From: Sedimentisphaerales bacterium
GTDB lineage: Bacteria; Planctomycetota; Phycisphaerae; Sedimentisphaerales; Anaerobacaceae
Assembly (NCBI GenBank): GCA_963708075.1
Contig: OY970194.1
Span: 1,728,001 to 1,792,000, forward strand
Length of the DNA stretch: 64,000 nt
Reading direction: 5' to 3'
In this document: positions 2,090 through 19,216 of the stretch, piece after piece
How the letters are laid out: every line of letters begins with the position of its first letter
How positions within the stretch are numbered: position 1 is the first letter of the stretch
The notes under the pieces: generated by a model
The model's input: the letters and a program-made list of their open reading frames with translations, nothing else
Databases searched by the model: none
Told to the model about the DNA's origin: nothing
Position numbers and translations under genes: made by a program

Positions 2090-2833
2090 TCAGTCCGGCC
2101 AGTGTTCCTGCTCCAGAATGGGCAAGATCACACTCAGGAGCTTTTCGCTGGCCTCCGTGGCGGCTGCCTTTGCCGGGGCGACATACCCCTGGTTGAAAAC
2201 CAGCTCGATCTTACAGAAATACGCATGTTTGCCGAAGATGTTTTTGTTCAGGGCCATGCGGGCGTCATCCCGGCTGCCCGCGTACTCCCCGTTCACGCGA
2301 AACAGGTACAGGACCGGAAATTGGCCCCCGCCTTGCAGGACGTCGCCGGCCGAAGCCCCGAAGAGGAGATACCGCCCCGGGACACTCCGGGCGTCACCCT
2401 CTGCGCCGAGTTGGAAGGTGACCCCGTTTGTCGCGATCCGTCGATAACCGCCGCCCGTGTAGCATTCCTCCGGCACGTGCGGCACGCGATCCGGAAGCTT
2501 GTAGTACGTGATGAACAGCAACACGTTTCGTGTGGGATTGTCGCCGGGCACACGGGGGTCTTCCAGGACCCACTGGATATAGTCCTCCGTCCCGAGAGAC
2601 TTCAGTATGTCCTCATTCTCGATACTGAGCCTGGCCGCCACCCGGTACGGGGCCAGTTTCTTCTCGTCCATCGCGCTGAGCGGCTTCTTCAACGGCAGCG
2701 GCTCTTTCTTCATGTACAGGCCGAGCTGCTTCTTGGCTACCGACATCCCCGCCCCGGCCAATCCAAGCACCACCACACAGAGCAAGAACGCCGGTTGCAG
2801 GTAAGCCCTTTTGTTGTCCCCGGTCCGCTTCAT
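2090..2833 (-). CDS. Exosortase-associated EpsI-like protein
   Basis: C-terminal part of ORF 2090..3712. Start MKRTGDN overlaps the exosortase stop; one TM segment; LFITYY...VPHVPEECYTGGGY motif typical of EpsI. Confidence 0.75.
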   Translation of the reverse strand: MKRTGDNKRAYLQPAFLLCVVVLGLAGAGMSVAKKQLGLYMKKEPLPLKKPLSAMDEKKLAPYRVAARLSIENEDILKSLGTEDYIQWVLEDPRVPGDNPTRNVLLFITYYKLPDRVPHVPEECYTGGGYRRIATNGVTFQLGAEGDARSVPGRYLLFGASAGDVLQGGGQFPVLYLFRVNGEYAGSRDDARMALNKNIFGKHAYFCKIELVFNQGYVAPAKAAATEASEKLLSVILPILEQEHWPD

Positions 2834-3879
2834 CTCTCGCTCCGCCTCCTCACAATCACGTTGTCGCCGCCGGAGCCTTCGTCCTCCTCGATGAACAGGC
2901 TCGCCATGAACGTCGCGAGCAGGCCGTAGAAGGCAAAGGCGAGCGGCAGCATGGCCAGGCCGAGCATATCGTGATAAATCCCCTGCGTGTACTGGGGCTC
3001 GGCCAGGACGTAGATGAAACCCGTCACGGTCACGCGAATGACGTTGCAGAGGATCGCGATCGGCACCGTGCTCAGCAGCAGCACGATCCGCTGCCACATC
3101 GGCCGATAGTGCAGGTAGGCCATCGCCACTCCCAGAGCCAGAAAGGCCATCATCAGCCGCATACCGCTGCATGCCTCGGCCACGTCCAGCGGCGGCTCCA
3201 GCCGATGCCCCTTGTAAACGATATCGATGACAACGCCGCTGGCCGTCGCGTCCACCCCATGGAGCAGATTCAGCAACGCCGTGGCAACCGATGCGGCGAT
3301 CTGCCGCATGGGCGTGGTCAGACCCACGTAGTAGCGCCGCGGCAAAGGCACCGCGAACAGGAGAAACACAATCGGCAACCACGTATATTGGACCAGACGC
3401 CATCCGCCCAGAAACAACACGACCGCCCCGACGGCGGCGATCATCGACACCGGCCGGAAATAGGCGTATCCGGACGGACTCACCACGTTGAATACGTAGA
3501 AGGCCAGTATCGCCAGCAGGAGGAGCAGGCCCAGGTAATTCGGCCGGGTCTGATTCGCGGGCAAGCGGCCGAGCCGGCGATTTCGGAACAGTTCGGCCAG
3601 CGGGTCCCGCACGTACTCCAAGCCGAGGATTTTCCGGCGGCGCTGGTGGATGAAATACAGGCTGAACAAAGGGATGAGGAAACCGTGCGACCAACTGGGG
3701 TCCGTCAGCCACAGATGAACCAGCTCCTGCAATTCGCTACGGAACAGGAAGCCCAACAGCGCCGCGAGAATCGCGATCTTCAAGTAACTGTGCAGCCCGA
3801 GCTCACCCCATCGGCGATCCTGCAGGGATGGGTCCGTGCCATACCCCCGGGTCGGTGACGAACCAAGCGTCTGAGCCAT
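2830..3879 (-). CDS. Exosortase/archaeosortase family protein
   Basis: Multi-TM protein with WSHGFLIP, VAEACSGMR (Cys), NVIRV (Arg) and YHDMLG (His). Confidence 0.93.
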   Translation of the reverse strand: MAQTLGSSPTRGYGTDPSLQDRRWGELGLHSYLKIAILAALLGFLFRSELQELVHLWLTDPSWSHGFLIPLFSLYFIHQRRRKILGLEYVRDPLAELFRNRRLGRLPANQTRPNYLGLLLLLAILAFYVFNVVSPSGYAYFRPVSMIAAVGAVVLFLGGWRLVQYTWLPIVFLLFAVPLPRRYYVGLTTPMRQIAASVATALLNLLHGVDATASGVVIDIVYKGHRLEPPLDVAEACSGMRLMMAFLALGVAMAYLHYRPMWQRIVLLLSTVPIAILCNVIRVTVTGFIYVLAEPQYTQGIYHDMLGLAMLPLAFAFYGLLATFMASLFIEEDEGSGGDNVIVRRRSER

Positions 3880-3894
3880 ACCCCCCTGTTTTCG

Positions 3895-5898
3895 TCACAG
3901 CCAGTGAGGCAGGACGAAACCTTTCCCAAAGTCCGCGTCAGCAAAGTTCCGGTCGTACACGAAGCCGAAGCCGTAGGCTGCCCGGAAGGCGTTCCGCAGG
4001 ACAGCCCGCCAGCGCGCAGTGGGATGAGTCCCGACGTTGATCAGGTCGTGTGGCTTGATGAAGAAGTCGGGCTGCTCTCCCGCGGCGATCTTGTCCAGGT
4101 CCACCATGACGATTTCTTCTTTTTCCTTTCCGATCCGTCGAATGACCTCGACGTTCTTGGGCCACGCCAGAGGTCCGAGGCCGCCGGCGGCGGCGATGGC
4201 CATCTTCAGGGTCATCGGCCGGCCGGTAATGTTGATCACCCCACTACGATTCACATTACCCATAATAAAGAATTCGCCAATGATGTCAACCGGCACGTAC
4301 ACCGTATCGCCCGGCTTGATCACGACATTGTATCGGGGGTCGCCGGCCAACAGCTTGTCGGCGGGAATCCGGAGCACCCGGCTCTGTGCGGCTTGCTCCC
4401 ACTCGATCTCCGGCGGCAACTGCTCCCGATCAGGCGGCGGCGTCGCTGTGCGGGTCTCCAATCCAGTCGGCAGCATCGGTCCCCGGGTCTCCAGTCCGGT
4501 CGGCACCGCCGGCACGGTCTGGGGTTGCCCCTTTGGGATCTGGACCCACTGACCGTCGCGATATACCCATTCAGACTGTCCGCCCGTGCCTGTCCCGGTT
4601 TCTTGCGGCTTCGGGGAAACGTCTGCGATCGGCCGGGTCGGCACCGGCACCCACTGGCCATTGCGAAAGACCCAATCGTAGCTCTCCCCCGCTTTCAGTT
4701 CGGGCGGGGCCGCCTGCGCAGGGCTGTTGGGTTCATTGGCCAGCACGATCGGCGACTGTACCACGTCCTGCGGCCGCCGAGGTTTGTCTGCGGGCGGTTT
4801 CGGCGACCCGACGAGCTGGAAGCCGTAAGGCATCACGCTGGCCGTGACACTCTCGTCTTGCTTTTTGGCCGGCGCGGGAGTGGGAACGACTTTCGCGCTC
4901 GTCGGGAAACTGTCCTTCTTCGCAGACGGCGCGATCAAGTCGAGCATCTCCCTCTCCAGCTCGAATTTCTCCGCCGGCTCGCGGGGCTCAGGGATGTCGG
5001 CCTTGCGAGGCGGGACGACTGAAGGCTCAGGCCCTCGCGGCGTTGCAGTCACGCCCTCCAGTCTGCTCGGCCCGCTCGATTGCGGCTGAATCAATTCCAG
5101 TTCCGATCCAGGCACGGACCTGACCGTATTGCCGCCAGTGTTCATGACCGGCACAGATCTGGCTGTATTGCCTCCGGTGGCCGGAGCAGGCGCCAATCTG
5201 GTCGTATCACCTCCGGTGATCGGAGCAGGCGCAGATCTGGCCGTATCTTCGCGACTGGCGGCAGGTGCGGCTTGCGTGTCATCCTTTCGCGAGACGTACA
5301 CGTAGCTGACGTTGAACTGCATGGGGCCGCCCGACGTCGCCAATGCATCGGTCAGCCGGAAATCGTAACGGGGAATGAGGTATCGTCCGGGCCGCGACAC
5401 GCCGTTGCCCAGGATCGAGAAGGTCCGCTGCTGCGAGTCCAGCAGGATCACTGTCACCGTGGGCTCCTTCAGGATGTTCGGCGCCAGCGTCCGCTTGATC
5501 TCCTCCTCCAGTTGCGTCTCCGTCAACCCCGCCGCCTGTATGCGGCCAACCTCAGGGATGGATATCTGCCCGGTCTCGGAAACCATGAACTGGTTAACCA
5601 GCGCGACCCCTTCCTGGAACAGCTCGTAAATCGAGACTTGGACGAGGTCGCCCGGTCGTAGTGCATAGTCGCCCTTCTGCGCGACGACGTCTTTGGGCCG
5701 GGGGTCCTCCGCACTCTCCCAGGCCACCGGGGTTTCCTCCGCCACGCCCAGCGAATCCAGGATGACATTGACCGCAGGCGTAGGCCGGAAACGCCCGACC
5801 TGCGTGGGGTCAAGGACCTTGTTGGTGCATCCCCCAATACTCAGGCCGACCACAACGGCCAATACCAGATCACAGATGATGACTCGTAAGTAGCCCAT
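3895..5898 (-). CDS. Polysaccharide biosynthesis/export (Wza-like, SLBB) lipoprotein with long low-complexity insertion
   Basis: Lipobox-like IGGC; YALRPGDLVQVSI..GQISIPEVGRIQAAGLT Poly_export motif; SLBB repeats (GNGVSRPGRY, GNVNRSG..AIAAAGG). Confidence 0.88.
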   Translation of the reverse strand: MGYLRVIICDLVLAVVVGLSIGGCTNKVLDPTQVGRFRPTPAVNVILDSLGVAEETPVAWESAEDPRPKDVVAQKGDYALRPGDLVQVSIYELFQEGVALVNQFMVSETGQISIPEVGRIQAAGLTETQLEEEIKRTLAPNILKEPTVTVILLDSQQRTFSILGNGVSRPGRYLIPRYDFRLTDALATSGGPMQFNVSYVYVSRKDDTQAAPAASREDTARSAPAPITGGDTTRLAPAPATGGNTARSVPVMNTGGNTVRSVPGSELELIQPQSSGPSRLEGVTATPRGPEPSVVPPRKADIPEPREPAEKFELEREMLDLIAPSAKKDSFPTSAKVVPTPAPAKKQDESVTASVMPYGFQLVGSPKPPADKPRRPQDVVQSPIVLANEPNSPAQAAPPELKAGESYDWVFRNGQWVPVPTRPIADVSPKPQETGTGTGGQSEWVYRDGQWVQIPKGQPQTVPAVPTGLETRGPMLPTGLETRTATPPPDREQLPPEIEWEQAAQSRVLRIPADKLLAGDPRYNVVIKPGDTVYVPVDIIGEFFIMGNVNRSGVINITGRPMTLKMAIAAAGGLGPLAWPKNVEVIRRIGKEKEEIVMVDLDKIAAGEQPDFFIKPHDLINVGTHPTARWRAVLRNAFRAAYGFGFVYDRNFADADFGKGFVLPHWL
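5111..5247. repeat. 39-bp coding tandem repeat (about 3.5 copies)
   Basis: Units start at 5111, 5150, 5189 and 5228 and encode TARSAPAPITGGD / TTRLAPAPATGGN / TARSVPVMNTGGN. Confidence 0.85.
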
Positions 5899-6346
5899 TC
5901 CAGAGATTTATCGGCTCCACGCGCGCCCCGCTTAAGTTTTTGACCCCCCAGAACGCGAAGATCATAGATCACAAGTGGAATTGGCCGGCACGAGCATACC
6001 CAAGGGTGCATAGTAATCCGTGTAGGCACCCCCGTTTTCAGTACTGAAACCACCATATTCAGTCAGACAACAGACCTTCTGATACCGCCATTTGGACCTA
6101 AGAAACGCATATCCCGCCATCGCCAGTTTCACTGATCCCTTAACACCGCGACGTTTCGCTTGCCTTCGCGCCACCTGGCCCCTACAATAAGACTATGAAT
6201 TTGCAGGCTGGCCAGGGAAGGATTTCTGGTTGATGCCCTGGGGGCCGGCAATCCGCGGGTGTCATGCCGCAGTGAGATGCCATTCATAATCGTGGCATCA
6301 GGTAGCGTTCTTGTTCTCTGCAAAAACGGGTCGCGAAGGTTAGCTG

Positions 6347-6643
6347 ATGCGAATCACGGATATCATCTGGAAGGAAGCTATTGTTGAGAAGCTGAGCTAC
6401 AAGCATGGCGTGTCGATTGCAGAGGCCGAGGAAGTCCTTCGTACCAAGCCGGTGGTGCGCAAGGTGATCAAAGGACGCGTACGCGGCGAGGATGTGTACG
6501 CCGCCATGGCGCAGATCGCCGGCGGAAGGTACTTGATCGTCTTCTTCATTGACAAGAAGCGAGGCATGGCGTTGCCCATCTCGGCGCGCGACATGGACCC
6601 CGCCGAAAGGAAATACTATGCGAAGCACAAAGAGACGGGTTGA
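6347..6643 (+). CDS. brnT: BrnT family toxin
   Basis: 98 aa; IIW..EKL..KHGVS..EAEEV, GRYLIVFF, ISARDM..ERKYY are BrnT hallmarks. Confidence 0.88.
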   Translation: MRITDIIWKEAIVEKLSYKHGVSIAEAEEVLRTKPVVRKVIKGRVRGEDVYAAMAQIAGGRYLIVFFIDKKRGMALPISARDMDPAERKYYAKHKETG

Positions 6644-6887
6644 CCCGCTGCCGGACGAGTTCAAGTCACATGAGGAGGCAGCGGAATTCTGGGACACCCA
6701 CAGCATCACCGACTATGAGGAATTCCTGGAGCCTGCTGATCTTAACGTGGACATCCAGAGACGACACTTTCAGATCGAGGTGGATGAAGAGAGTTTCCTG
6801 GCTCTACGTGAGACCGCCAAAAAAGAACAGAAACCCGTCAAACAACTCGCCAGTGAAATCCTCAAGCAGAGGCTCGGCACTGGCTGA
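6618..6887 (+). CDS. CopG/BrnA-type antitoxin
   Basis: Overlaps the toxin 3' end; LPDEFKSHEEAAEFWDTHSITDY motif plus C-terminal ribbon-helix-helix-like segment. Confidence 0.85.
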   Translation: MRSTKRRVDPLPDEFKSHEEAAEFWDTHSITDYEEFLEPADLNVDIQRRHFQIEVDEESFLALRETAKKEQKPVKQLASEILKQRLGTG

Positions 6888-6966
6888 CGGCAGGAAAGAC
6901 GCATCGGATGCCGTCGCGCCTCCCGCCCAACGCGTGCTTGCCCGAGGAGCTTTTGGAGACGGCCCC

Positions 6967-7185
6967 ATGACAGACCCCATCCACGAAGAGATTCACAAGT
7001 ATCGGGAGGAGCATGCTCGCAAGTTCAACTTCGATTTGGCTGCTATCTGCAAGGACCTGAAAGAGCGATCACGTAACCTCAAGGTGGTTCGCCTACCTCC
7101 GAACAAGCTAAGCCCCAAGAAGGGAAATAAGGTATGTCGCAACACGTCCCCCTTGCCTTTCTGCTGGCTTAGCTCTACAATATGA
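6967..7185 (+). CDS. Small DPI-EE protein of the type usually encoded after PIN-domain toxins
   Basis: MTDPIHEEIHKYREEHARKFNFDLAAICKDL; GGAG upstream. Confidence 0.6.
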   Translation: MTDPIHEEIHKYREEHARKFNFDLAAICKDLKERSRNLKVVRLPPNKLSPKKGNKVCRNTSPLPFCWLSSTI

Positions 7186-7348
7186 CTATGGAATCGCAGG
7201 CTCGTGCGCTTTTTGAGACGGACAAGAAAAGGTCGAGGCTGACACCGTGTGGCCAAGAAACCGTGATTTTGCGCTACACTAACCGCGAGGCGTGTAAACG
7301 CACTTGTCACCAACGCAATATAGTCATGGGTACGGGGAGGACCGTTCT

Positions 7349-7750
7349 ATGAAGACATCAGGGTTTTGGGGACATTTCGAAGAGCCCACAGCGGAGGCTA
7401 ATTCTCATTCCAGAGCCATTTGTGGCACCCAAACCAGGCAGCGAGAAGAGCCTGACCAACGAAACACATTCGTTATTGCAGACACAAAGACCGTGACGAA
7501 CACCCGGGAAGAAGCAGATCAAGATATCCATAATGGACACCATTGTGCGATACCGATCCGTGTTGCCTCCGGTGAAACGTTCACGAAACAGCGAGAGGAG
7601 CCTGATCAAGACGAAAGCAATCAAATCCATGTGGCAGTCCCTAGGCAATCTCTTTGCCGCACTCAGACGATGACGGAAGGACGAGAGGAACCAGACCAAG
7701 ACCAAAGCAGCTACGGATACAGTCCAATCCCTGTGAACACAAAAACATGA
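7349..7750 (+). CDS. Multi-core graspetide (omega-ester RiPP) precursor peptide
   Basis: GGGGAGG RBS; leader with FWGHFEEP; four TxTxxREE(P/A)DQ(D) repeats; ATGA overlap with the ATP-grasp gene. Confidence 0.85.
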   Translation: MKTSGFWGHFEEPTAEANSHSRAICGTQTRQREEPDQRNTFVIADTKTVTNTREEADQDIHNGHHCAIPIRVASGETFTKQREEPDQDESNQIHVAVPRQSLCRTQTMTEGREEPDQDQSSYGYSPIPVNTKT

Positions 7751-8727
7751 ACATGACCGCTGAGCACGTTCTTGTCCTCACAAATTCATCTGACGTCACG
7801 TCCGACTATCTATGCTCAAGATTCGAGCAGGCACGGGTCGAATTCTCTCGATTCGACACAGACAGAGACTGCCGTGAAGCTGCGTTTCTATACCAAGCGC
7901 GAAGCCCCAGGCTCAAATGGGCTACACACTCCCTCACCGCAGATCAAGTAACAGCCGTCGTACTCAGACGACCCAAACCTGCGGAGGTTCACAGGAATAG
8001 CGACGTGTACTCCGAGAGGCATACCGCCGGAGAATGGTCAGAGGCAATAGAGGGATTCCTCGCTCATATAGACGAAACACTCTGGGTCAATCACCCAGCA
8101 AGGAATAGCGCCGCAAGCCACAAGATTGAGCAACTCAGCCGCGCGGAGAGGTACGGCTTACACGTTCCGCGGACCCTCGTAACCACCAATATTCAGGAGG
8201 CCGAGAGATTTGTCCTCTCTGAGAAGAATGGTGTCATCGTCAAGCCACTGGCCAGCGGCTTCATCGAAAGGGAAAGGCATGAACAGGATACTGTCATTTA
8301 CACGAGCCACTTCAAAGCAGAGAACATAGGCCTTCTGAAAGAGATTCAGTTCTGTCCTGTTCTATTCCAGGAAATGATTCTCAAAGCAATTGACGTTCGT
8401 GTGACGATGCTAGATGGGATCATCGTCGCAACGGGGATAAGAGCCATGGGACCAGATGGCAGGCAACGACTGGATGTCCGACGGAACAACATGTCTGACG
8501 TTGAGTACGTTCCGACCGAACCGCCGGCTGAAGTATCAGCCGCTGCTAGGTCGTTGGTGCGAAGCTATGGACTGCGCTTTGCTGCTCTTGATTTTGGCGT
8601 CGCGGAGTCCGGAGAGTGGTTCTTCTTTGAGATCAATCCTAATGGCCAGTGGGCATGGCTTGATCTTCATGGGAAGGCAGACATCGCATCGGTGTTTGTC
8701 AGACAATTGAAGGAGCCTCACCCTTGA
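7747..8727 (+). CDS. ATP-grasp RiPP macrocyclase (MvdC/MvdD-like, RimK superfamily)
   Basis: VLVLTNSSDVTSD, WVNHP..ASHKIEQL..A..GLHVPRTLVT, VIVKPL, PVLFQEMI.K..DVRV, FAALDF, FFEINPNGQWAWL. Confidence 0.92.
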   Translation: MNMTAEHVLVLTNSSDVTSDYLCSRFEQARVEFSRFDTDRDCREAAFLYQARSPRLKWATHSLTADQVTAVVLRRPKPAEVHRNSDVYSERHTAGEWSEAIEGFLAHIDETLWVNHPARNSAASHKIEQLSRAERYGLHVPRTLVTTNIQEAERFVLSEKNGVIVKPLASGFIERERHEQDTVIYTSHFKAENIGLLKEIQFCPVLFQEMILKAIDVRVTMLDGIIVATGIRAMGPDGRQRLDVRRNNMSDVEYVPTEPPAEVSAAARSLVRSYGLRFAALDFGVAESGEWFFFEINPNGQWAWLDLHGKADIASVFVRQLKEPHP

Positions 8728-9530
8728 GAATTGGCGACTTCCTATTGACGATCTGCAAGTCCTGCGAGAATGTTGGCGAAAAGGCATGCCGTGTAGCGAC
8801 TTATGCCCTTCTATTCATCCTGAACCCAGGCCATAGATATAGGGAAGTCAAGGCGCAGCGAATGGACGTAGGCGTGATACGGGACACCGATGCTCCAAGG
8901 ATCACACCTGTCAGTGCAGAAGCCGCTCGTGAGTATTTTCAGGAGGAACTCCGGAGAGGCCAAGTCGTCGATGAGAAGAATAAAGTCCTACTGACTGTCG
9001 CGGCTCTCTTGGTTGCAGCATGCGCAGCCATTGCATCCAACATTGAACCCAAATGGCCAATTCTCCTCCCACTAACCTTAACCGGGATTTCGGTCTTTCT
9101 TGTCCTAGTACACTTCGGTGTCCGATCTGTTCCTGTACCCAGCCATGAAATAACCGACCAAGAGAAACTGGCGGAGTCGTTCTCGGAATGCAGAAAGTCC
9201 CTCTCGCTGGCTACCTCCTATAGGGTAGGAGTCTATCGTGCTTCGCTGCGTGCCGCGACATTGGGCATTGTGTCGTTGCTACTTGTCTTTGCCTATTTTG
9301 CCTTCAGCAGAGCCGCATCTTCTGAGAACAAACTCATCAGGGCTGTGAAGAACGATTTGGAACTCGCAGATTGGCTACGGGGACCACAAGGCCCAGTCGG
9401 ACCGCCAGGGCCCAAGGGTGAACGAGGGCCAGAGGGCCCACAAGGTCCTATTGGACCTCAGGGGCCACAGGGATCTACTGGACCTGAAGCCTCACAAAGA
9501 TCCCTTGAGGATGGTGGCGAGGCGGGATGA
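8724..9530 (+). CDS. Membrane protein (3-4 TM) with C-terminal collagen-like Gly-X-Y repeat
   Basis: TTG start overlaps the ATP-grasp stop; hydrophobic segments; tail GPQGPVGPPGPKGERGPEGPQGPIGPQGPQGSTGPE. Confidence 0.7.
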   Translation: MRIGDFLLTICKSCENVGEKACRVATYALLFILNPGHRYREVKAQRMDVGVIRDTDAPRITPVSAEAAREYFQEELRRGQVVDEKNKVLLTVAALLVAACAAIASNIEPKWPILLPLTLTGISVFLVLVHFGVRSVPVPSHEITDQEKLAESFSECRKSLSLATSYRVGVYRASLRAATLGIVSLLLVFAYFAFSRAASSENKLIRAVKNDLELADWLRGPQGPVGPPGPKGERGPEGPQGPIGPQGPQGSTGPEASQRSLEDGGEAG

Positions 9531-17482: not shown

Positions 17483-17706
17483 CCTGCCACGTGGATTCTT
17501 CCCACTGGGGACATCCACCTTCCCTCTCCCCCGAAGCCGCAGAGAACACCCGCCGTGCAAGAATGTGGAATGTGTAGGTTTGACCCCCTACTCGTCCCCA
17601 GGGCAAGGACCAAGACACGCAGAAAAACGCCGAATCGGATGCTGTTTCTTCTTGCCGTGCTCGGTGTGGCGCGTTATCACCACGGGCGTGACTGAAGGAG
17701 AATCGG

Positions 17707-18222
17707 ATGCCCATGACAGATCCAAATGACGTCTTTAGACAGTATCTTGAGGAGAGACCGTTACTGGACTTCTCTGTCTACACGAATACACAGATCGAGC
17801 GACTTAACAAGCTCGCATCTGAGATTAATGGTATGATGACACAGCGTAGAGATGCTCAAGTGTTTAGTGATATATATGGATCATTTTGGCTATGGGTACT
17901 TGGAGCATATGAAGTTGTCAGGACTATGGCTCAGGCAAGATCATCTTTTGTGCCAGAAGTGACTCAGCGACTTAAAGACTATAAACGTAAGATTGCCAAC
18001 ATCCGTATGCCGTTTGCCAAGCAAGAGTATCAAGGAAGAAATCGCCCCATTTTCAATGAAGCTTCTATGTCTGGAATGAATACGCAGACTGGAGATATGT
18101 TCTTCACAATCGAGGGCGTTCAGTTTTCAAGCATGTCATTAATGAAGGAATTTCGTGATCTAATGGTTAGCATAAAGGCCACGGATATACTTAAAAGACA
18201 CGATGAATCGTATAATCAATAA
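17707..18222 (+). CDS. Hypothetical alpha-helical protein (AT-richer cargo)
   Basis: 171-aa ORF with GAAGGAG RBS; visibly more AT-rich than the backbone. Confidence 0.7.
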   Translation: MPMTDPNDVFRQYLEERPLLDFSVYTNTQIERLNKLASEINGMMTQRRDAQVFSDIYGSFWLWVLGAYEVVRTMAQARSSFVPEVTQRLKDYKRKIANIRMPFAKQEYQGRNRPIFNEASMSGMNTQTGDMFFTIEGVQFSSMSLMKEFRDLMVSIKATDILKRHDESYNQ

Positions 18223-18292
18223 ACGTCGACGAATGCGAGTAACTAGGGTCGGTCCATAGTAACGCCAAATAACTGTTGGGAGAAAAACAGAA

Positions 18293-19216
18293 ATGTGCGC
18301 GTGCAACTCGCGGCGACATCGAGTTAACAACAACCATTTCTCTCCTGCGTTTGCGAACGAGCAGTGGACGGCGGACAAACACTATGTCTGTTATTATCGT
18401 GACCATCACAAAGGGAGAGTGAGTCAGACCACGAACGGGCGGAGGCAGTGGGGTCGCCTGCGCAGGCTGTACACGGATCGTGTCGAATATGCGCTCAACC
18501 ACGAGTTGGAGACCCCTGCATCGCTCATCTATGACGCACTGCTCCGCGGGCGGTCACTAGATGCACAATCGCGTCTTAAGTGGTCGCAGTTCCTTCGTTC
18601 TCAGTTTGTGCGTACGCCAACGTTCATGCGCTACGAGGAGACGGCAAAGCAACTCACAGGTGTAAGGGAGCAACCGTTGCATGATCGGGTCGGCTGCGAG
18701 GAGTGCCTGGACCTTCACGAAGTTGCTGGAAGAGACTGGACCATCTTGGTTGCGCACCCTGATGACTTCTTCATCAGAACAGACAATCCTGTATACGTGA
18801 CCGGTTTTTTGATATCGCCTAAGTCAGTCCTCTACTACCCGCTCAGTCCTCGGTGTTGCTTCGCCGCCTGCTCTATGCCGGATGATTGGAATCCTGATGA
18901 GGATATAACGACTAGCAATCCTTCGCATACAGCCGTGGAATTGGAAAAGGGTGTGGCTCATGTCCTCAATTTCTACTTCGCCAGAGCCGCTGGCGAGTCG
19001 GCCATAGTGTGTCCTGACCATGACAGCGCGTTTATTCGGGCAATGTTGACTCAGGTTCTTGGCATCTACCCACAGATGCCGTTCGACCTTCATATGCCGA
19101 AACTCCACGAGGTAGAGGATGCTCGCGAAAGCCTGAGAGGGCTTATGACCGTAGCGGACGGGGTTGAGTACGCTACATACCGGCCGCCTGAAATAGAGCC
19201 GTTCTACGCAAAATAG
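18293..19216 (+). CDS. DUF4238-like protein
   Basis: N-terminal NHFSPAF..W, E..L...LE, RTP, FFIRTDNPV, YYPLSPR pattern matches DUF4238. Confidence 0.65.
   Translation: MCACNSRRHRVNNNHFSPAFANEQWTADKHYVCYYRDHHKGRVSQTTNGRRQWGRLRRLYTDRVEYALNHELETPASLIYDALLRGRSLDAQSRLKWSQFLRSQFVRTPTFMRYEETAKQLTGVREQPLHDRVGCEECLDLHEVAGRDWTILVAHPDDFFIRTDNPVYVTGFLISPKSVLYYPLSPRCCFAACSMPDDWNPDEDITTSNPSHTAVELEKGVAHVLNFYFARAAGESAIVCPDHDSAFIRAMLTQVLGIYPQMPFDLHMPKLHEVEDARESLRGLMTVADGVEYATYRPPEIEPFYAK

Follow-up and report, generated by a model that had tools for sequence, protein, structure and literature searches.

Microviridins (graspetide Group 1; MdnB/MdnC, MvdC/MvdD) have a core motif of the TxKxPSDx(E/D)(D/E) type. 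Among Group 6 graspetides, OEP6-1 reportedly stems from Lee et al. 2020, where the formal Group 6 motif is said to be T-x-T-x-T-x4-E-x-D-x-D. A secondary passage (PMC12291112) gives OEP6-1 the form of a stem-loop bearing three nested cross-links, and the Group 6 core motif and connectivity used here come from this one passage together with labels in the supplementary information (SI) of Carter et al. 2026 (PMC13097080). In the portion of that SI examined, precursors of the REEPDQD type are labelled graspetide Group 6, and the rows with this label include Nodularia chucula CCY0103, MAGs of Phycisphaerae and Phycisphaerales, Myxococcus and others. The survey of Makarova et al. 2022 gives no placement because REEPD, EEPDQD, QREE and Planctomyc/Phycisphaer names were not found in the parts of its supplements searched, where the figure file has no group motifs. 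A literature search found no paper on graspetides in Planctomycetes.

The window (the whole stretch of 64,000 nucleotides that was analysed) contains a cassette of three genes in the order precursor, ligase, membrane protein, all on the plus strand and all of full length. By likeness to catalogued members, the cassette belongs to the published Group 6 (OEP6 type). The reading we favour, with a probability of roughly 0.8, is a Group 6 three-gene cassette in which the ligase is predicted to ester-link Thr to Glu/Asp in each repeat of the precursor, and the membrane protein is the likely recipient or exporter of the product. The features are as follows.

5600..9400, no strand: low-GC islet with the cassette and a BrnT/BrnA pair (GC 51-57% vs about 61% around it)
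7334..7341, plus strand: Shine-Dalgarno-like GGGGAGGA, 7 nt 5' of the precursor ATG, read from the sequence
7349..7750, plus strand: graspetide precursor gene P0003, leader and four cores (ORF translation, 133 aa, homologue alignment)
7349..7426, plus strand: leader region, residues 1-26 (F6, W7, F10, E11 and E12 invariant in 13/13 homologues)
7427..7462, plus strand: core 1, T27-R38, TQTRQREEPDQR (two Thr, outer Asp absent)
7484..7525, plus strand: core 2, T46-D59, TKTVTNTREEADQD (four Thr, four acidic residues)
7577..7612, plus strand: core 3, T77-D88, TFTKQREEPDQD (two Thr)
7661..7702, plus strand: core 4, T105-D118, TQTMTEGREEPDQD (three Thr)
7747..8727, plus strand: ATP-grasp graspetide synthetase P0001 (profile and PDB matches; 326 aa from ATG 7747 or 324 aa from ATG 7753)
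8710..8715, plus strand: Shine-Dalgarno AAGGAG, 8 nt 5' of the TTG start of the third gene, read from the sequence
8724..9530, plus strand: conserved membrane partner P0002 (268 aa; a soluble part at the N-terminus, then three hydrophobic helices and a collagen-like tail)

When the core consensus was compared with published groups, it matched Group 6 as labelled in the SI rows examined (PMC13097080). The words REEPDQD, REEADQD and REESDQD and the FW..FEE leader are shared with these rows, and two of the catalogued precursors with the same REEPDQD cores come from Phycisphaerae/Phycisphaerales. As in the Group 6 members seen there, a single MvdC/D-like ATP-grasp ligase accompanies a leader of the type F(W/L)..F(E/Q)E and cores of the form T-x-T-(x-T)...R-E-E-x-D-Q-D in 2 to 5 repeats; the core words recur in precursors from Phycisphaerae, Phycisphaerales, Nodularia, Myxococcus and Deltaproteobacteria. 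The present precursor differs in having four cores, of which the leader-proximal one lacks the outer Asp. P0001 and the ligase of the Nodularia chucula Group 6 locus (L004) share 42% identity (271 bits). By our own conversion, and for this one labelled member, that corresponds to an SSN score of about 76, where the paper sets its cut at 70. The cluster itself is thus ordinary, because the rows examined already list cores and leaders of this type under Group 6, Phycisphaerae examples among them. This particular copy was not seen there: TQTRQREE has 0 occurrences in the portion of the Carter SI table examined.

Other graspetides are more distant. Thuringinin (Group 3) and plesiocin (Group 2) share with the cassette the gene layout, as far as the sources consulted describe it, and tandem hairpin-like ester-linked units, which are predicted here. 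However, the plesiocin core motif is TTxxxxEE, and the plesiocin synthetase PsnB is only a remote match to P0001 (5e-6). Microviridin enzymes belong to the same superfamily with a pre-ATP-grasp leader-binding domain, and their substrates also have an aromatic leader motif (PFFARFL, compared with FW..FEE here). But microviridin uses two ligases and this genome has one, and the locus lacks a Lys for a lactam, a TxKxPSD-type core, an acetyltransferase and an ABC-peptidase. A microviridin (Group 1) identity was rejected on the single ligase in the genome and the lack of a TxKxPSDx(E/D)(D/E)-type core.

The precursor is a single-copy gene. Translation of 7349-7750 (+) reproduces the 133-aa ORF with four repeats described in the initial annotation: TQTRQREEPDQ(R), TKTVTNTREEADQD, TFTKQREEPDQD and TQTMTEGREEPDQD, with AIP, AVP and PIP in the spacers. 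The repeats follow the pattern T-x-T...R-E-E-x-D-Q four times, and three of the four cores are detectable as repeats at the DNA level (a 43-nt family, 60-77% identity). The short FWGHFEEP leader also noted there holds across relatives, as FW..FEE is invariant in 13/13 aligned precursors. In ten relatives with 45-63% identity, the leader and all core positions are kept while the spacers drift. Judged by this conservation, the four-repeat pattern is not a chance arrangement.

Conservation was counted over 55 cores in 14 precursors, with position 0 as the first Glu of R-E-E. On the N-terminal side, T-4 is present in 55/55 cores, T-6 in 53/55 and R-1 in 53/55; E0 is found in 55/55 and E+1 in 54/55, followed by D/E+3 (54/55) and Q+4 (53/55). 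In the leader-proximal core, Arg occupies +5 in 11 of the 14 precursors scanned, so the last Asp is absent; all 11 of these cores retain T-6. The earlier proposal placed nested rings on a (T)xTxTxxxExxDxD pattern; T-x-T-x-T-x-x-x-x-E-x-D-x-D, with the second Glu as the probable acceptor, fits the conservation at least as well, and the first core lacks the last Asp. From these counts, the universal minimum per core is a predicted two rings, not three.

In the proposed chemistry, the FW..FEE leader would be bound by the ligase, which would then link Thr hydroxyls to Glu/Asp carboxyls within every one of the four repeats. Nested esters are predicted between T(-4) and E(+1) and between T(-6) and D(+3), with a third, T(-8)-D(+5), in cores that have both residues. 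These would be T29-E34 and T27-D36 in core 1; T50-E55, T48-D57 and T46-D59 in core 2; T79-E84 and T77-D86 in core 3; and T109-E114, T107-D116 and T105-D118 in core 4. About 10 water losses (range 8-11) would be expected on P0003. This register is favoured because it joins donors that are universal (T-4, T-6) to acceptors that are universal as well (E+1, D+3). The alternative register, T-2/E+1, T-4/D+3 and T-6/D+5, would draw on the invariant T-2 of core 2 in the homologue alignment. The product would be four beta-hairpin stem-loops on a single chain and, by analogy with characterised graspetides, may act as a multivalent protease inhibitor.

The ligase is likewise single-copy. Its assignment as an MvdC/D-type enzyme is borne out by NCBIfam matches to TIGR04187 (3e-69), MvdC (1e-45) and MvdD (4e-39), although these scores lie under the cut-offs of the NCBIfam subfamily models (TIGR04187: 233.6 bits, below the curated 350). 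The Pfam MvdD pre-ATP-grasp domain PF21068 scores exactly at its cut-off. A PDB sequence search gave six matches at E<=1e-3, every one a graspetide synthetase (AMdnB, MdnB, MdnC, CdnC, 9bou, PsnB). The ligase alignment has an invariant block, F-F-E-I-N-P-N-G-Q-W, whose E295 and N297 are putative Mg-ATP residues. The closest ligases come from Sedimentisphaerales/Phycisphaerae MAGs, which agrees with the probable planctomycete host named in the initial annotation, as does PF07596 (11 matches vs 0 in 14 control genomes). Among loci with an assessable upstream ORF, a precursor with the strict core pattern lies directly upstream of the ligase in 40/72. Plasmid relatives of P0001 are annotated tgmB/MvdC-D.

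A complex prediction of the ligase with precursor residues 1-60 scored 0.41, while the best of three controls scored 0.00; the runs share at least 33% of contacts and the partner pLDDT is at least 40. The mark is reached by 116/157 solved complexes and 2/215 mismatches, but scores of 0.60 or lower cover only 18/157 solved complexes and both of the passing mismatches. The pass may also reflect memory, because similar complexes have already been solved. The predicted complex lends weak support to leader-ligase binding.

The precursor and ligase genes are tightly coupled under either ligase start. The ATGA overlap reported earlier exists in the sequence (ATG 7747-7749 over the precursor stop TGA 7748-7750), but the true start may be 7753. 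The public gene call (there P0004, 324 aa) uses this second ATG, 2 nt past the precursor stop, and ligase homologues start M-x-(A)-E-H, which fits ATG 7753 at least as well as 7747. The initial annotation closed the cluster at 8727; this end has to be moved, since the third gene (8724-9530) follows with a TTG start overlapping the ligase stop (TTGA). On its other side lies an ArsP permease gene on the opposite strand. A scan for promoters and terminators found sites no more numerous than in shuffled sequence.

This third gene, P0002, is also single-copy. Its hydrophobic helices lie at about residues 85-108, 110-138 and 173-200; residues 220-255 form a collagen-like Gly-X-Y tail. In related loci with at least 600 nt downstream, this membrane gene lies directly 3' of the ligase in 65/66. 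Fusions of ligase and membrane protein occur in 2/149 representatives; both are singletons from metagenome assemblies and are possible frameshift artefacts of overlapping genes. The P0002 family counts 1085 representatives at E<=1e-3.

Comparison with defence models suggests that P0002 looks like a distant relative of the PycTM membrane effectors (Pycsar; PADLOC PDLC02363-5, Pfam PF18967). P0002 itself matches a PADLOC PycTM model weakly (E 9e-4, 17.6 bits), but PADLOC PycTM models recognise 12 of the 21 close members of its family. In a set of 60 diverse members, the hits of the three models number 11, 10 and 7 at E<=0.01; the Nodularia member gives the best match (6.7e-7). Alignment of the family with 27 PycTM-model proteins by hhalign gave 92% in local mode (E 6e-7) and 94% in global mode, the latter collinear through helix, D-x-K, TM1, TM2, linker and TM3; our own PycTM HMM matches 38/149 representatives. 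The shared architecture is an amphipathic helix, D-x-K, TM1, TM2, a cytoplasmic linker and TM3. P0002 differs in an extra N-terminal segment (LNPGH..EV), the collagen-like tail and the lack of a pyrimidine cyclase partner. There is no match to Pfam's own PycTM model. An ESM-Atlas feature match to a PF18967 cluster (0.87) was noted as a lead only. None of the 27 PycTM-model loci has an ATP-grasp gene, and a literature search found no paper joining PycTM with ATP-grasp. Since no pyrimidine cyclase adjoins P0002 (its neighbours are the ligase and the ArsP permease), the cassette is not a Pycsar system.

As stated earlier, no peptidase or ABC exporter is encoded nearby; within ~5 kb of the cassette we likewise found no leader peptidase or known exporter. 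The suggestion that the product stays an intact cytoplasmic protein is nevertheless weakened, because a conserved membrane gene with a start/stop overlap, missed at the time, follows the ligase. The N-terminus of the membrane protein is predicted to be cytoplasmic and its collagen-like tail outside; the protein would trimerise and could form the product's route out of the cell. This export role is a guess; Makarova et al., in the part consulted, also guess export for the membrane protein of thuringinin loci (their cluster 18). The main text of Carter et al. 2026 (PMC13097080) discusses neither a linked membrane gene nor the genomic context of Group 6, and the membrane partner and defence-gene setting of Group 6 cassettes appear undescribed.

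The cassette is rare and its distribution patchy: it is found in 2/401 genomes sampled in its phylum, and the listed genomes of the same order and class lack it. Apart from the present one, the sample has a single close copy (G270), which has SIR2, SNase and HNH genes on its flanks. Viral contigs yielded only distant ligases of other groups (24-33% identity over full-length matches), with no sign of a phage-borne cassette. On plasmids, only distant tgmB-type ligases were found, along with one Group-6-like ligase from Acaryochloris broken into four pieces. Flanking genes were surveyed as 150 ORFs from 43 related loci, with one member dropped from each of the duplicate pairs L049/L050 and L072/L073, against 101 ORFs from 19 arbitrary regions of 9 complete genomes. 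Textbook defence families account for 13/150 flanking ORFs vs 0/101 in the control (strict set; Fisher p = 0.002): type I/IIG restriction-modification, Mrr, AbiGi, ThsA, three ThsB, BrxL, PycTIR, an E1/JAB protein and an AAA_15/21 ATPase. The broad set, which adds caspase-like, HEPN, HNH, BrnA, reverse transcriptase, M78 and ThiF proteins, reaches 22/150 in 15 loci vs 0/101 (Fisher p = 1e-5). PADLOC at E<=1e-10 matched 14 of the first 75 flank ORFs and 4 of the first 60 control ORFs (p = 0.046), all four control matches being generic FtsH or kinase domains. A literature search joining ATP-grasp with defense islands returned only unrelated papers.

The same chemistry could serve another purpose, with the cassette working as a conflict or anti-phage module and not as the source of a secreted natural product. 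The PycTM-like protein would then be a pore-forming or membrane-perturbing effector, and the peptide would stay intracellular, where it would regulate that effector or else inhibit or sense a protease of phage or host origin. Such a role fits because, among recognisable relatives, those closest to the membrane protein are defence effectors that kill cells, and the neighbours are defence genes; the low-GC islet shared with BrnT/BrnA, the setting of the second phylum copy and the patchy occurrence point the same way. However, this is guilt by association: variable islands also collect bacteriocin clusters, RiPP clusters and accessory genes of other kinds. The comparison regions were unmatched, coming from complete genomes of one phylum, we sorted the Pfam names ourselves, the related loci are not independent (the duplicates above), and some lie among housekeeping genes (L001, L007). 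The weak PycTM match of P0002 itself and the unmatched Pfam model also speak against it, no cyclase or other sensor is present, PADLOC models match neither ligase nor precursor, and characterised graspetides are all protease inhibitors according to the part of Makarova et al. consulted. On balance we consider an anti-phage purpose unlikely. Its furthest form is equally doubtful: a widespread undescribed defence-island system in which a ribosomal peptide, cross-linked to give several hairpins that resist proteases, and a trimeric collagen-zippered membrane effector would together stop phage or other invaders, making Group 6 graspetides immune parts and not secreted products.

Two other explanations carry less weight still. 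The cassette might be a horizontally acquired passenger, silent or decaying here, with ORFs intact by chance of recent arrival and no product made. The low GC, the absence from listed relatives in the same order and class and the broken Acaryochloris ligase would suit this, but the three full-length ORFs have ribosome-binding sites and coupled starts, and the residues invariant in 34 ligases and 13 precursors are all present (the window copies being the reference rows of these alignments). A passenger is quite improbable. That the ligase is a RimK/glutathione-synthetase-type housekeeping enzyme next to an unrelated repeat ORF is scarcely credible. The name 'glutathione synthase/RimK-type ligase-like' is given to relatives in some databases, and secondary matches exist (RimK 1.3e-7, GshB 5.8e-5, GSH-S_ATP 1.4e-4), but RiPP-maturase models beat RimK/GshB by 40 to 60 orders of magnitude, the PDB matches at E<=1e-3 include neither a RimK nor a GshB structure, and the precursor is conserved upstream. 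Neither NCBIfam profiles nor PDB matches group the ligase with RimK/GshB, an identity they rule out as far as sequence can; by the same matches it is a RiPP maturase.

As a Group 6 graspetide cassette, the locus adds one further cluster from a poorly studied phylum. Its wider value lies in the membrane protein, which is almost obligately ligase-linked, sometimes fused, seemingly a distant PycTM cousin and predicted to hold its collagen-like tail outside. The neighbours of the cassette in related loci include restriction, Thoeris, Abi, caspase-like and toxin-antitoxin genes. If this association holds in matched tests, it would raise the question of what multi-core graspetides are for, be it a new kind of export channel or phage defence.

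The graspetide cassette consists of three genes that lie in a row on the forward strand:

7349-7750, forward: ORF of the 133-aa precursor P0003, with four repeats, Thr-rich then acidic, in the order TQTRQREEPDQR, TKTVTNTREEADQD, TFTKQREEPDQD, TQTMTEGREEPDQD
7747 or 7753 to 8727, forward: ATP-grasp ligase gene (P0001), directly 3' of the precursor ORF
8724-9530, forward: gene of the 268-aa membrane protein P0002, with a TTG start at 8724 that overlaps the ligase stop (TTGA) and AAGGAG upstream of the start

Translation of 7349-7750 confirmed the four-repeat ORF of the initial annotation, and its ATG is preceded by a strong Shine-Dalgarno-like site. Judged by comparison with ten relatives at 45-63% identity and the precursors of two related loci (L001 and L002), this ORF is a real gene, because the leader residues F6, W7, F10, E11 and E12 and the core positions are kept while the spacers drift. 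A core scan covered 55 cores in 14 precursors, position 0 being the first Glu of R-E-E. T-4 and E0 are present in all 55 cores, E+1 and D/E+3 in 54, T-6, R-1 and Q+4 in 53, and D/E+5 in 42. Thr at -2 (26/55) and Thr or Ser at -8 (26/55) are optional. Arg occupies +5 in 11 cores, which are the leader-proximal cores of 11 of the 14 precursors; T-6 is present in all 11.

Nearly every core is followed by an aromatic-x-x-A/V-I/V-P motif (P0003 residues 64-69, 93-98 and 122-128), in which A67, P69, A96, P98, I127 and P128 are 90-100% conserved. The same motif is the C-terminus of most precursors in the compared loci L001-L085 (...YFAIPR, ...FTVIPR). The motif may serve in cleavage, in docking or as a signal for export. 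A sister precursor type is encoded at L003 (2906-3280) and at L160 in the sampled genome G270 (8054-8383, reverse strand); its leader reads F(I/V).(F/R)FQE, and TMTKTQVFTEQPDSD and TKTTTAVRAEIADED are examples of its cores. The strict core pattern used for precursors fails to catch this type, whose ligase and membrane-gene layout is unchanged.

The ATGA coupling of precursor and ligase proposed initially stands as far as the junction itself, which is present at 7747-7750, but the public call of the ligase (P0004) is 324 aa long and therefore begins at the next ATG, 7753. Homologous ligases begin M-x-(A)-E-H, so either start is possible. P0001 matches the MvdD pre-ATP-grasp domain PF21068 with a score exactly at the cut-off. 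Among NCBIfam ATP-grasp ribosomal peptide maturase models it matched TIGR04187 (3e-69), MvdC (1e-45), MvdD (4e-39) and grasp-with-spasm (3e-23), with scores below the curated cut-offs of these narrow models. The solved structures that match at E<=1e-3 are all graspetide synthetases (6/6: AMdnB, MdnB, MdnC, CdnC, 9bou and PsnB). Because these models and structures match best, the ligase does not fall with RimK or glutathione-synthetase enzymes; on sequence evidence that identity was rejected, RimK reaching just 1e-7 and glutathione synthase just 6e-5. The closest ligases come from Sedimentisphaerales and Phycisphaerae metagenome-assembled genomes (MAGs). A Group-6-like ligase of 44% identity, matched in four pieces, lies on the 27.9-kb Acaryochloris sp. 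plasmid NZ_CP071726.1 (11663-12358); this copy is probably broken.

Makarova et al. 2022 (PMC8939145) report precursors with several cores in Lee's groups 3, 5 and 6, and an uncharacterised membrane protein that is peculiar to thuringinin loci; the text sections and supplements of that paper that were searched contain neither an REEPD-type core nor a planctomycete. Carter et al. 2026 (PMC13097080) distinguish 43 groups with 21,584 predicted graspetides between them, and in SI file 2 of that paper precursors that share core words and leader type with P0003 bear the Group 6 label. Rows under this label include, among others, Nodularia chucula CCY0103 (the source record of locus L004), a Phycisphaerales MAG, a Phycisphaerae MAG whose precursor has the leader FWRHFEEP and Y.AIP spacers, Myxococcus guangdongensis and a deltaproteobacterium. 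P0001 aligns with the Nodularia ligase at 42% identity and 271 bits, by our own conversion an alignment score of about 76 against the network cut of 70 in Carter et al. 2026. Since the labelled precursors share words and leader and the ligase score exceeds the network cut, the cassette is, by sequence comparison, a member of the known and already catalogued Group 6. The initial annotation was right in reading a graspetide cluster, and the comparison of the core consensus with published groups that it proposed leads to Group 6 words and leader. According to PMC12291112, the characterised Group 6 member OEP6-1 forms a stem-loop in which three cross-links are nested.

The ester rings are predicted to follow a nested hairpin register in which Thr at -6 and -4 would be the donors and E+1 and D+3 the acceptors, donor and acceptor positions summing to -3, since both universal Thr and both universal acceptors fit it. 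Cores that have both T-8 and D+5 would gain a third ring between these two. P0003 would then carry 2 + 3 + 2 + 3 = 10 esters, its donor/acceptor maximum being 11. An alternative register with a sum of -1 would give 8 esters; T-2, invariant in core 2, has no explanation under the sum of -3. The -3 register is nevertheless favoured from the core patterns, because cores without D+5 still have T-6. A predicted complex between the ligase and residues 1-60 of the precursor scored 0.41 (best of three controls, 0.00), at a mark passed by 116/157 solved complexes and 2/215 mismatches, where scores of 0.60 or less account for just 18 of the 157 and both passing mismatches. Contacts agree between runs to at least 33%, with a partner pLDDT of 40 or more. 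The model lends weak support to a ligase-precursor contact, and the pass may be memory because like complexes are already solved.

The N-terminal part of P0002 is soluble, with a conserved LNPGH..EV segment, and is followed by three hydrophobic helices and a Gly-X-Y run (220-255) that matches the collagen repeat. The membrane gene directly follows the ligase in 4/4 genome loci. A ligase profile added 80 metagenome loci (84 in all, two duplicate pairs among them), and the family HMM matches the ORF after the ligase in 65 of the 66 loci with at least 600 nt downstream, the exception being L061. Counted from the first start codon, 10/61 complete genes show the same 4-nt overlap with the ligase. 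Searched with a profile, 1.84 billion representatives yielded 1085 members of the family at E<=1e-3, of which 253 are at E<=1e-30. A full, Group-6-type ligase is fused to the membrane protein in 2/149 scanned representatives, P0329 (584 aa) and P0352 (571 aa), both singleton clusters from one or two metagenome contigs each. If real, these fusions would imply a cytoplasmic N-terminus for P0002-type proteins and an external collagen-like tail. Such a near-obligate, sometimes fused, PycTM-like and collagen-tailed partner is not in the literature searched.

Pfam recovered the collagen repeat alone, in 34 of 60 P0002-family members. PADLOC models of PycTM, the membrane effector of Pycsar anti-phage systems, match P0002 weakly (9e-4), the Nodularia member at 6.7e-7 and 12/21 close members; the three models match 11, 10 and 7 of 60 diverse members. 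For comparison, 27 PycTM-model proteins from 23 of the 401 sampled genomes of the phylum were aligned. Their profile matches that of the P0002 family locally in hhalign (92%, E 6e-7) over the helix, D-x-K and TM1, and the helix order is alike in the global mode (94%). For P0002 residues 55-215 ESM-Atlas lists a PF18967 cluster at 0.87, a lead only. None of the 27 PycTM-model loci has an ATP-grasp gene. P0002 is taken to be a putative remote homologue of proteins of the PycTM type and not a Pycsar component. At L049 the gene of a cNMP-binding protein that carries a CAP12/Pycsar TIR domain (6901-7839, reverse strand) is 1.5 kb away from a cassette whose own membrane protein is PycTM-like.

The flanks of 43 other cassette loci (150 ORFs, each 110 aa or longer) contain 13 ORFs of textbook defence families in 9 loci: HsdM, HsdR, a type IIG restriction-modification enzyme, Mrr, AbiGi, ThsA, three ThsB, BrxL, a cNMP-binding PycTIR, an E1/JAB protein and an AAA_15/21 ATPase. 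With caspase-like, HEPN, HNH, BrnA, reverse transcriptase, M78 and ThiF proteins included, the count rises to 22 ORFs, spread over 15 loci; the flanks also contain integrases, a transposase, TrbI and a terminase. In the control (nine complete genomes of the phylum, sampled in 19 arbitrary regions of 8 kb with 101 ORFs in all) there was no defence-type ORF by either list and one transposase. Fisher p values were 0.002 (strict) and 1e-5 (broad), with Pfam names sorted by the author, a control unmatched to metagenome contigs and loci that are not independent. PADLOC at E<=1e-10 matched 14/75 first flank ORFs and 4/60 first control ORFs (p = 0.046), the four control matches all being FtsH or Ser/Thr kinase domains. 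The G270 cassette has SIR2, SNase and HNH genes in its flanks. The L027 cassette has a full Thoeris system (68-2587; ThsA at 690 bits and a pair of ThsB) immediately upstream. Defence families are commoner in the flanks than in the control regions, although some cassettes (L001, L007) sit amid housekeeping genes. With the PycTM-like partner and the defence company taken together, it is possible but unlikely that the cassettes serve in conflict and are not ordinary natural-product clusters. In the literature searched, no paper connects ATP-grasp clusters of RiPPs with defence islands or PycTM, and the defence-island company is likewise absent.

The cassette lies in a stretch of 51-57% GC amid 61% GC DNA, with reverse-strand blocks on both sides (exosortase/polysaccharide export; ArsP permease/ferredoxin/hybrid-cluster protein). 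Upstream are:

2090-5898, reverse: exosortase EpsH, EpsI-like (DUF3485) and a Wza-type polysaccharide export protein of 667 aa that has a long Pro/Thr-rich insert
6347-6887, forward: BrnT toxin ORF (PF04365, 2.8e-9), then CopG/BrnA-type antitoxin ORF (PF12441, 2.4e-9)
6955-7185, within the ORF 6640-7185, forward: small ORF (MTDPIHEEIHKYREEH...) between the toxin-antitoxin pair and the precursor

The toxin-antitoxin pair is directly upstream of the cassette, within the low-GC islet; the small ORF has no Pfam or PADLOC match. As claimed initially, no peptidase or ABC transporter is encoded within about 5 kb of the cassette. GC also falls sharply, to 44-49% amid about 60%, at 17600-18600 of the window. 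The genome has 11 above-cut-off matches to PF07596 (DUF1559), a family biased to planctomycetes, against none in 14 control genomes; together with the origin of the closest ligases this fits a probable planctomycete host. Precursor, ligase and membrane gene are each present in one copy in the 7.5-Mb genome. A close ligase occurs in two of the 401 phylum genomes (the source genome, 1e-155; G270, 9e-131) and distant ligases in eight more; the same-order and same-class genomes listed among the 401 gave no ligase match. Islet composition and patchy spread together suggest that the cassette was horizontally acquired.
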